DNA of 64,000 nt, from the NCBI RefSeq assembly GCF_053078305.1, contig NZ_CP166879.1; one strand, 5' to 3'. The position numbers and the translations under genes are program-made. Numbering within the stretch: position 1 is the stretch's first letter; each line of letters begins with the position of its first letter. Shown in pieces: positions 8,608 through 50,592 of the stretch. The notes beneath the pieces were generated by a model. It had not been told where the DNA came from. It searched no databases and was given only the letters and a program-made list of their open reading frames with translations.

Positions 8608-8642
8608 CGTACTGTCAGAGAAATCAGTGCTCTGACAGTACG
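8608..8642. repeat. Perfect 13-bp inverted repeat (hairpin) downstream of yncL and patD
   Basis: cgtactgtcagag-aaatcagtg-ctctgacagtacg; no adjacent T-tract on either strand. Confidence 0.6.
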
Positions 8643-20779: not shown

Positions 20780-22525
20780 CATCCTCCACGCCCTGAAGGA
20801 CGTGGATCCCTGCTACGTTCAGGCTGTCGCCTGAATCATTTCGGTGGGTTCCTGCTTCAACGGGCGGCCTGACTGCACCATCTCTCCACAGGCAAGAACG
20901 GCGTGCCCCGCCGCTAAAATGTTACGAGCGCCATTTACATCGGCGTTCGCTGTATATCCACATACCTGGCATCTGAATTTACTTTGTGACAGGCGGTTCT
21001 CTTTCGCTGTATGACCACAGTACGCGCAACGCTGGCTTGTATACGCTGGCGGAACAGCAAGCACCTGACCGCCACGCCAGAGCTGCTTGTACTCAAGCTG
21101 GCGGCGCATTTCATACCAGCCCTGATCCAGTATCGAACGGTTTAAACCTGATTTTGCCCGGACATTGCGCCCCGGCTGGCTGACCGTACCCGCTGCTGAC
21201 TTTGACATGTTGCTGACCTTCAAATCCTCAATGACTATCATTGCGTGGTTTTTGCTGACGGCCGTTGTGACTTTGTGAAGGTAGTCCCTGCGGATATTTG
21301 CGATACAGGAATGCAGTCGCTGTATTTTGCGTTTCTGCTTCTGCCAGTTGTTGCTGAATTTGACCTTGCGGCTTAACTGTCGCTGAAGTCTCGCCAGCGT
21401 CTTCTGGTTTTTCTGAAAACTGTTTACAGGCTCAAAGACTGTGCCATCTGACAGCGTGGCGAGTTTAGCCACGCCAGCATCCAGCCCGACCATTGATGCT
21501 GAAGGGTGAGCCGGAGTGGATACTTCACTTTCTGTCTGAATACTGATGTACCACTTACCGCAGGACTGGCTGACAGTGACATTTTTCACAACACCCGTGA
21601 CCTGACGGCTATTCCGGTAGCGCATCCAGCCCAGTTTCGGCAGAAAAATACGGCTGTTTTCCTGATCGAGCTTAACGCCCTGCGGGTAGCGGAATGCATC
21701 ATTCTGTCCCCGCTTTTTGAATCGGGGAAAAGCAGCCCGCTTCCGGAAGAAGTTTTTGTAAGCCCGCTCAAGGTCTTTCAGTGACTGTTGCAATGGCTGT
21801 GAGGGAGAATCTTTAAGCCATTGCGTTTCAGTGGCATTTTTCCACTCAACCAGCCAGGAAGCCATTTTCCCGTAAGGGATGTATTTATTACCGGCCTCAT
21901 GATTCTCATTCTGACGTGCCAGAGCACGATTGAAAACGAAACGACATGCGCCTGCGAAGCGCCTCATTTCACACTCCTGTTGACCACCTGGTCTTAACTG
22001 GAATTTAAATGCCTGTAATCGTTTCACAGGTCAAATGATACTTTGGTCTGTGAAAAAAGAAACCGATATCCGGCGTGGAAGGCATTGTGTTTTCCTGATG
22101 CATGTTCACCTGGTCTTTGTCACCAGATACCGACGCCAGATTTTTGACCATGACGCGACAGAAAAACTACGCACTTACTTTTCAAATGTATGTGCTTATT
22201 TTGAAGCTGAACTGGTTGAAATGGATGGCGAACCAGATCACGTCCATTTGTTAATTAACTAACCTCCCAAACTGGCGATATCCAGTCTGGTAAACAGCCT
22301 CAAAGGCGTATCGGGTAGGTTACTGCGACGAGATCGACCAGATATTGCAGTCAGGTATTACTACAAAGGCGTTTTGTGGAGTCCTGGCTATTTTGCCAGT
22401 AGCTGCGGAGGTGCGCCAATATCCGCCATCCGTCAATACATTGAACAACAGCAAACACCTGGTCAGGTGGAAAACCGCGCCTTATATCCCCGCCCTGAAG
22501 GATGGGGTTTTACGGCGCACCGGAT
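20780..22525 (-). mobile_element. IS200/IS605-family insertion sequence (IS609-like), tnpA and tnpB divergent
   Basis: Divergent tnpB (20819..22027) and tnpA (22035..); subterminal imperfect hairpins sharing loop ccctgaagga near both ends (20785..20806 and about 22485..22505); no terminal inverted repeats, as expected for this family; boundaries approximate. Confidence 0.75.
20819..22027 (-). CDS. tnpB: TnpB (IS605 OrfB-family RNA-guided nuclease, OMEGA effector)
   Basis: 402-aa ORF; Ruv[17 protein letters not shown], Ruv[11 protein letters not shown], zinc finger CAYCGH...CQVCGY, Ruv[14 protein letters not shown] all present; N-terminus [13 protein letters not shown] typical of TnpB. Confidence 0.9.
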
Positions 22526-22558: not shown

Positions 22559-23227
22559 CTACTTTTTGTTAACGTCAAACATGGTGGCATCGGTCGCCAT
22601 GTCATCAATAACTTGTTTAATATTTTCGAAAGCCATTGGCGTACTTTCGTTATTCAGGTCTTTACCTTCGCCCTGACGAACGACTTTGATAACCGGTTTA
22701 TTAGTCGCTGCATCAATCAGCTCACCTTCAAAATAGAGGCGAGTATCCATGGTACGGTGGCCTGTAGCCATTTGCGTCCCCGCAACCACTAATGCAACAG
22801 GAACCACTTCATAGAATTGCAGCCCTTCTTTGCTGGTATCTACACCGGTAATGGCCCCACGGAAAATCAGACTACGCGGCCCAGCGGTGGTAACCACTGG
22901 TTTACGCTGCGCTATCGCTTCTTTCATTTCGGTGTTGGTATAGTTCAAAATTTTATCCAGAACTTTCTGCCCTACCTGGGTAGAAGGTTTTGGTACCGGA
23001 TAATAAGTGATTGGGTTCCAGACGATGCTGTCATATTTGCTTTGATCAAAACTCGGGTCTACCCAACGTAAAACAGGTTTACCTGTTGCTGAGGTTGTTT
23101 CTTTTAAATCAGAGTAATTGTTTAAAAAACCAGAATATTTATCTGGCTGGGTGATTTTAGAGGCACAACCAGACAGAGCCAACAAGCCGCATAAAGCTGC
23201 AACTTTCGCAAATGATGTGGTACGCAT
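22559..23227 (-). CDS. ydcL: Lipoprotein YdcL
   Basis: 222-aa ORF; lipobox LALSGC after signal peptide. Confidence 0.88.
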   Translation of the reverse strand: MRTTSFAKVAALCGLLALSGCASKITQPDKYSGFLNNYSDLKETTSATGKPVLRWVDPSFDQSKYDSIVWNPITYYPVPKPSTQVGQKVLDKILNYTNTEMKEAIAQRKPVVTTAGPRSLIFRGAITGVDTSKEGLQFYEVVPVALVVAGTQMATGHRTMDTRLYFEGELIDAATNKPVIKVVRQGEGKDLNNESTPMAFENIKQVIDDMATDATMFDVNKK

Positions 23228-23530
23228 GAATAGTTTCCTGAGATGATTATATTACTTTTTAAGTTATAGCAAAAAGCGCCGCTTCGTGTTGTGGCAAAAA
23301 AAGTGTTGGTGAAAATAAATTTTTTTAGCCCCTTTTCAGACGACATAGTCAATGCCGCAAAAGGGGCTAAGTCAATCATCAGTAGTTAAATTTCAGTAAG
23401 TTAAGCTGCTAAAAAACTTCGACTACTGTGATTAATTTCACATCCCTTCGATAAAAAATATGCTTACCGAAAAGAAGGACAGTAAACCATCTCAGCGTGG
23501 GGAATTTTCACGCGCTTTGTTCTTACCGGG

Positions 23531-24124
23531 TCATTTTTTACGTGCCAGCATCGTGGCGAAACGCAGTTTAATACGATTACCGTTGGCGTCGGTGCGGTGC
23601 AGCTCGCCGACGTCTTCATTGTATTTCACCATCTCCCAGCCTTCGTAATATCGACGTAATTCTCCCTCTTTGAAGGCAAACGGGAAGCCGACGGTACATG
23701 GATAATCAGCGGTATCCATCGCCGCCACAATCAGGTTGTAACCGCCAGGTTTAGTGCAACGTTGCATATTGGCAATCAGCCCTGGGATGGTTTTAGCCTC
23801 AAGGAACATCAGCACCACAGTCGAAAGAATAAAATCGTACTGTCCAGCAAATGTGAGGTTATTCAGATCAACGACCCGGGTGTGTAAATTATCCAGATTT
23901 TCAATAGATTTAATGCGCTCGACGTTGGCGATACTCATGGCATTTTTATCCCATGCGTCAACATCATAACCATTGGCTGCCAGGTAAAGACTGTTACGAC
24001 CATTGCCACAGCCCAGATCCAGCGTTTTACCCGGTTTAACCACTTTCACCGCTTCCAGTACTTCAGAGTGTGTGCGGGTTAATTCATATTTATCAGTAAA
24101 ATAATTTTCGTCACGAATGATCAT
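23531..24124 (-). CDS. tehB: Tellurite resistance SAM-dependent methyltransferase
   Basis: 197-aa ORF; SAM-binding motif [15 protein letters not shown]; overlaps tehA stop. Confidence 0.92.
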
Positions 24125-50545: not shown

Positions 50546-50584
50546 TAAAAAAGAAACAAAAGGGAAATGCATCTTTCCCTTTTG
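50546..50584 (-). terminator. Intrinsic terminator of pdxI (ydbC)
   Basis: Minus strand: aaagggaaa-gatgca-tttcccttt hairpin then gtttctttttt. Confidence 0.55.
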
Positions 50585-50592
50585 TATATTCG

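Follow-up and report, generated by a model that had tools for sequence, protein, structure and literature searches.

What does a stable hairpin do between tehB and ydcL, in a slot that holds intrinsic terminators in related genera, when it has no U-tract of its own? In the window (the whole 64-kb stretch of DNA analysed here), tehA, tehB and ydcL all lie on the minus strand, an orientation that the original prediction of the hairpin had left unremarked for tehB and ydcL. The coding sequence of tehB, the last gene of tehAB, runs over 23531..24124 and that of ydcL, a DUF3313 lipoprotein gene, over 22559..23227; both were located from the ORF list and RefSeq annotation, for tehB that of identical or near-identical loci. 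The window is E. coli DNA, and the spacer between the two genes is 100% identical to that of O157:H7 genomes. In the direction of transcription the tehB stop is followed by 160 nt, the hairpin, ~97-98 nt and then the ydcL ATG, and the hairpin itself spans the region ~98-143 nt before this ATG. A small ORF across the hairpin (85 aa, 23122-23379, minus strand) was considered and rejected: it is an out-of-frame overlap with ydcL, and in K-12 a 1-nt indel in the A-run shifts its frame.

Structure and strand preference of the hairpin

The ORF list and the inverted-repeat search agree in placing the hairpin in the ydcL-tehB spacer, where it had been predicted. Its arms, at 23325-23336 (TTAGCCCCTTTT) and 23359-23370 (AAAAGGGGCTAA), are each 12 nt long and 100% complementary, and the distance measured between them is 22 nt, not the loop of about 24 nt first proposed; read on the minus strand, 23370..23359 (UUAGCCCCUUUU) forms the 5' arm and 23336..23325 (AAAAGGGGCUAA) the 3' arm. 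The 10-bp stem originally described (agcccctttt/aaaaggggct) is real as a core, although it lies at 23327-23336 and 23359-23368, not at 23328-23371, and is part of a longer helix. Inverted-repeat search and RNA folding both give a perfect 12-bp outer stem, which holds five G-C pairs, and the whole stem-loop occupies 23325..23370 on the minus strand. The hairpin is real and exceeds chance: perfect 12-bp inverted repeats with a gap of 3-40 nt occur at three loci in the window, the hairpin included, against a mean of 0.27 hits for such twelve-mers in 100 dinucleotide shuffles. The only other short-gap perfect inverted repeats of at least 12 bp in the window are a 13-bp repeat at 8608-8642 (CGTACTGTCAGAG / CTCTGACAGTACG) without an adjacent T-run, and one at 50556-50585, where AAAAGGGAAA-tgcatc-TTTCCCTTTT is followed by GTATATT and has A-rich sequence upstream, a terminator-like look.

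Folded as RNA, a 71-nt segment gives -26.4 kcal/mol (z -6.3) for the minus strand and -19.3 kcal/mol (z -4.4) for the plus strand, and none of 200 shuffles folded as well on either strand. In the minus-strand RNA the 22 nt between the arms form a 7-bp inner stem (23340..23358; MFE and centroid structures), a feature missing from the original prediction, in which GCGGCAU (23358..23352) pairs with AUGUCGU (23346..23340), two of the pairs being G-U. With this stem formed, the apical loop is UGACU (5 nt, 23351..23347) and a bulge of 3 nt, CUG, remains at 23339..23337; the loop has 5 nt only when the G-U-containing inner stem is present, and otherwise 22 nt separate the perfect arms. The fold prediction forms the inner stem in minus-strand RNA only. 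The difference of ~7 kcal/mol between the strands arises because the G-U pairs of the inner stem become A-C mismatches on the plus strand.

The tail that follows the hairpin on the minus strand (23306..23324, AAAAA UUUAUUUUCACCAA) was defined from the sequence, the per-locus tail composition and the alignment. The sense-strand sequence after the hairpin reads A7, then UUUAUUUU (full tail AAAAAUUUAUUUUCACC); the tail AAAAAUUUAU has two T in its first 8 nt and no U-tract 0-2 nt from the stem. On the plus strand, the T-run reported upstream of the stem is indeed there, at 23320-23326, with 23325-23326 paired in the stem. The A-run reported downstream of it is absent: the plus-strand sequence past the stem is GTCAATCATCAG, and the sole run of A is formed by the AAAA within the 3' arm. 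A terminator consensus scan called no terminator at the hairpin on either strand, which bears out the original view that this is not a canonical terminator, and found no terminator-like site on the minus strand of the tehB-ydcL spacer. The hairpin is like an intrinsic terminator in being GC-rich, in its place on the sense strand 160 nt past the tehB stop and in occupying the same slot as true terminators. It departs from that class, in which ~5 or more U are found within 8 nt, 0-2 nt past the stem, by having no U-tract; the apical loop of intrinsic terminators is ~3-8 nt, against 22 nt between the arms here, or 5 nt with the inner stem.

In the 40 nt past the hairpin there are 10 C and 2 G, the highest excess of C over G in the local profile. 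The stretch is suggestive of a rut site. It overlaps motifs upstream of ydcL that are conserved even in genera with a canonical terminator, and may instead be ydcL promoter DNA.

Copy number and selection for pairing

Blastn (word size 11) located the 61-nt hairpin element as a single copy in 5406 of 5426 complete E. coli genomes (median of one place per genome over the 5406), and no annotated feature lies under it in E. coli genomes. We therefore rejected a REP/MITE-like repeat, in agreement with the original opinion that the element is not REP-like. The hairpin does share with REP/BIME sequences an intergenic location between co-oriented genes and a possible capacity to stabilise upstream mRNA, but those occur in many copies with a common consensus, whereas this one is single-copy and its arms are not repeated elsewhere. 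A search of the window for other copies of the stem found none: the arm has two exact matches, which are the two arms, and the 61-nt element likewise has no further copy. Searching Rfam 15 over 23000-23700 at a permissive E-value gave no match at the gathering score and only chance-level hits, the best overlapping ones scoring 9-23 bits against gathering thresholds of 37-86, with E-values of 0.24 to 8.

An IS609 (IS200/IS605-family) remnant lies just past ydcL at 20819-22262, with an intact insQ/tnpB ORF of 402 aa and a truncated tnpA. The K-12 annotation has the same IS609 arrangement; in the O157:H7 genome with the 100% identical spacer, ydcO adjoins ydcL and there is no IS. We considered whether the hairpin is an IS609/IS200-605 end and rejected this, since ydcL separates the remnant from the hairpin and the O157 genome without the IS still has the hairpin. 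The E. coli strain FCI1 (NZ_CM172811.1) has ~35 extra spacer nt in which parts of the 5' half of the hairpin are duplicated (GCCCCTTTTTCGGCA... repeated), through either slippage at the hairpin or an assembly artefact. In the E. coli strain E66 (NZ_CM173951.1), the tehB stop is followed after 52 nt by IS1 copies, and the locus has neither the hairpin nor ydcL.

Identity within E. coli is ~95-99% for the hairpin and for the spacer as a whole, and conservation at the species level therefore says nothing special about it. No pair shows a double compensatory change within Escherichia (eight sequences). Changes compatible with wobble pairing on the sense strand do occur, namely a U-G at the stem base in K-12 and a C-to-U in one other locus (L006), and several Escherichia sequences have a non-pairing stem cell (GG, CA, UU or AC). 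The hairpin is kept in E. albertii and in cryptic Escherichia lineages.

The conservation that the original prediction had raised as a question takes the form of a base-paired hairpin at the same position in Escherichia, Citrobacter and Salmonella arizonae/diarizonae, with compensatory changes. A joint MAFFT alignment of Escherichia and Citrobacter was structurally inconsistent and RNAalifold returned no consensus for it; the clades were analysed separately. For 15 Citrobacter and Salmonella sequences, in which the hairpin differs in sequence from that of Escherichia and retains its pairing, RNAalifold gave a 10-bp helix with nine of the ten pairs changed on both sides and pairing kept. Paired cells make up 93.3% of this helix, a share that drops to 26-51% if the 3' partners are shifted by 1-3 columns. 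Not one of 500 shuffles reached the value seen for the paired fraction, for the count of covarying pairs or for the covariation score. Pairing in the sister genera is under selection. The non-Watson-Crick cells of the same helix comprise 17 G-U and 3 A-C; since each G-U pair in sense RNA corresponds to an A-C mismatch in antisense RNA, this excess marks the sense strand, and pairing is maintained for sense-strand RNA, not for antisense RNA or a symmetric DNA duplex. The sense strand also folds more stably than the antisense strand in all Escherichia and in most Citrobacter/Salmonella sequences. The 5' halves of the Escherichia and Citrobacter hairpins are partially similar (CTTAGCCCCTTTTGCGGCAT against CTTAACTCTTTCTGCGTTCAGCAT), and we regard the two hairpins as putative equivalents on the strength of position and partial sequence similarity, which falls short of proof.

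The hairpin slot and the ydcL promoter region

Scanning with the YdcL protein, one genome per species, yielded 80 loci, and at each we located the single hairpin of greatest stability in the interval -185 to -60 relative to the ydcL ATG. In most of the 80, ~95-105 nt separate the 3' end of this hairpin from the ATG. It is a canonical terminator in many Enterobacter, Leclercia, Raoultella, Yokenella and Trabulsiella loci, with a GC-rich stem and 4-7 T in the next 8 nt (for example, GCTGCCCGCCATCATGGCGGGCAGT then TTTTTTTT in the ydcL slot). Escherichia and most Citrobacter/Salmonella loci have an A-rich tail past the hairpin (3-7 A, at most 3 T), the Salmonella loci concerned being arizonae/diarizonae; in Citrobacter/Salmonella the A-rich tail runs into TTGTGC, with no U-run. 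Part of the tail (AAAUUU...) aligns with a motif upstream of ydcL that reads AAATTGTGC / AATTTGTGC elsewhere and AAATTTATT in E. coli. As the motif is present upstream of ydcL even where a T-run terminator occurs, the Escherichia/Citrobacter hairpins are truly without a U-tract and do not have a displaced one.

The gene preceding ydcL varies. It is tehB in Escherichia (gap ~300 nt; 174 nt in Escherichia sp. MOD1-EC7003), in Citrobacter and Salmonella arizonae/diarizonae (~150-175 nt) and in several further genera, and a different gene in Enterobacter, Leclercia, Raoultella and others, in one locus (L031) a 532-aa ORF. Between the tehB stop and the hairpin, in the 3' UTR of tehB, there is a segment of ~128 nt (23401-23528, minus strand) which is present in E. 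coli, E. albertii and two other Escherichia lineages, is partly deleted in L006 and is absent from MOD1-EC7003, Citrobacter and Salmonella, where the hairpin lies ~40 nt past tehB. The segment has one copy per E. coli genome and is predicted to be fairly structured (-36.6 kcal/mol, z -2.65). Inside it the scan found a plus-strand promoter-like site, TTCACA-16-TATGCT (23437-23464), antisense to tehB, and ~30 nt past this site there is a terminator-like hairpin at 23495-23513 on the plus strand with the tail GCTTTGTTCT. Together these could specify a tiny antisense transcript, or they could be a chance pairing.

Two candidate -10 elements for ydcL, read from the sequence and from the alignment across genera, lie downstream of the hairpin within 23246..23268 on the minus strand. 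The first, GCTATAAC, contains TATAAC at 23268..23263 and is the E. coli form of a block, TTTGCTAT(A/T)..., which is conserved across genera ~40 nt before the ydcL ATG. The second is a perfect TATAAT at 23251..23246 that follows GCTATAAC and is specific to E. coli. Genomic SELEX places an RpoS-holoenzyme peak in the tehB-ydcL spacer (PMC5493296), and ydcL is reported to be lower in a rob mutant (PMC7537768). We infer from these observations that the likely ydcL promoter is downstream of the hairpin, which would put the hairpin in the tehAB transcript and outside the ydcL 5' UTR. Between the hairpin and the -10 region there is also a tandem 17-nt direct repeat (23286-23319; TTTATTTTCACCAACAC / TTTTTTTGCCACAACAC on the minus strand), the second copy of which belongs to a motif, TTTTTTGYCACAAC, found upstream of ydcL in Enterobacter, Klebsiella, Raoultella, Kluyvera and others; this motif may be a regulator binding site or a core promoter element. 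No convincing match to a marbox, a CRP site or matS was seen by eye within the hairpin or near it.

Proposed role of the hairpin

We suggest that the hairpin is the 3' stem-loop of the tehAB mRNA, a factor-dependent transcript end and exonuclease barrier upstream of the ydcL promoter, and put the probability of this at roughly 55%. It would then be a structure of the sense (minus) strand RNA in the tehA-tehB 3' untranslated region, filling the slot ~100 nt before the ydcL ATG in which many related genera have an intrinsic terminator for the gene preceding ydcL. RNA polymerase would pass through the hairpin or pause at it, and tehAB transcription would stop a little further downstream, where the sequence is rich in C and poor in G, either through a factor (Rho) or by an inefficient process. 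Such an RNA end would fall near position 23325 of the window on the minus strand, estimated at ~1,502,110-1,502,120 on the + strand of MG1655 (U00096.3). Exonucleases acting 3'-to-5' would trim the RNA back to the base of the stem-loop, which would define and protect the steady-state 3' end of the tehAB mRNA and insulate the ydcL promoter region from upstream transcription. We favour this assignment because the fold beats shuffled sequences and does so better on the sense strand, because tehB, hairpin and ydcL are co-oriented with the hairpin between the tehB stop and the ydcL -10 block, because canonical terminators hold the same slot in many loci of other genera, and because the Citrobacter/Salmonella helix covaries, with a G-U excess that points to sense RNA. 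Against it, the E. coli hairpin is no more conserved than its spacer, Escherichia has no double changes, and some pairs are broken.

There is a precedent for such an end. Rho-dependent transcripts of E. coli are reported to have precise steady-state 3' ends directly after stable stem-loops with no U-rich sequence behind them; such a stem-loop shields the RNA from PNPase and RNase II, and the rut sites are found a short way further on (Dar & Sorek 2018, PMC6061677). The tehAB hairpin resembles this class in being stable, in lying past the last gene of a transcription unit, in having no U-rich stretch and in being followed by C-rich, G-poor sequence. Our hairpin is assigned to the class by anatomy, and an RNA 3' end at the hairpin, like any dependence on Rho, is a proposal. 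Among the published data searched, we found no 3'-end, TSS, operon or Rho-inhibition data for tehB/ydcL, and a search for tehB with bicyclomycin found nothing relevant.

The hairpin might instead be an intercistronic element of a tehA-tehB-ydcL co-transcript. Polymerase would read through it, and the stem-loop would be a barrier that affects processing or stability, for instance once RNase E has cut the AU-rich tail, stabilising tehAB and uncoupling its level from that of ydcL. The three co-oriented genes, the tehB-ydcL synteny in many genera, the lack of a U-tract, the A/U-rich single-stranded tail after the hairpin and the selection for pairing in the sister clade all fit with this. The TTTGCTAT... 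block, the E. coli TATAAT and the RpoS-holoenzyme peak, however, suggest a separate ydcL promoter downstream of the hairpin, and the canonical terminator in the same slot of many genera implies that read-through is not ancestral. We consider the co-transcript unlikely.

Somewhat more doubtful is a weak, non-canonical intrinsic terminator that would give partial, Rho-free termination, either with the stem alone or in an extended form. The hairpin is the positional equivalent of the canonical terminators of other genera, and the MFE fold of the 71-nt sense RNA has an extra 4-bp extension in which an upstream GAUU pairs with a downstream AAUU, bringing UAUUUUC next to the structure. The extension, however, consists of four weak pairs across a 3x3 internal loop, no U-tract lies 0-2 nt from the stable stem, the consensus scan has no match, and the Citrobacter/Salmonella tails continue into TTGTGC, not a U-run.

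It is improbable, in our judgement, that the hairpin is simply the decaying relic of an intrinsic terminator, with its U-tract lost and little present function in E. coli. The full terminator at the same position in many other genera, conservation in E. coli at the spacer background without double compensatory changes, and the rare strains with stem mismatches or a local duplication would agree with decay. Compensatory substitution, however, clearly keeps the Citrobacter/Salmonella pairing, also in the absence of a U-tract, and the stem, a perfect 12 bp in E. coli, persists in E. albertii and the cryptic lineages of Escherichia.

The arrangement of hairpin, A-rich tail and AAATT(G/T) motif is kept in Escherichia, Citrobacter and Salmonella arizonae/diarizonae. 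One might see in this U-tract-less hairpin, its tail and the motif a dedicated regulatory device, either a conditional switch of read-through or processing by which expression of ydcL, an envelope lipoprotein gene, is coupled to tehAB transcription, or a type of terminator that lacks a U-tract and requires a specific factor; we give this idea little credence. Least credible of all is an element that works as DNA, a cruciform or palindromic operator that binds a dimeric regulator and sits ~60-120 bp upstream of the likely ydcL promoter. Expression of ydcL does respond to regulators, as the rob effect and the RpoS peak indicate, but dimeric regulators do not typically use 12-bp half-sites 22 bp apart. 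Escherichia and Citrobacter/Salmonella have different arms, which covary within the second group while complementarity stays, the opposite of the conserved half-sites of a sequence-specific operator, and the G-U excess is strand-specific and lacks the symmetry of a duplex.

Should the hairpin be confirmed as the 3' stem-loop of the tehAB mRNA, the E. coli map would gain another 3' stem-loop of the U-tract-less kind, and it would be clear where the tehAB transcript ends and how far upstream the ydcL promoter region reaches. Beyond annotation the hairpin would matter little, as an ordinary transcript-end element that had previously gone unannotated. It would also be a small example of a transcript-end structure that is kept by compensatory change while the mechanism of termination apparently changes between genera.
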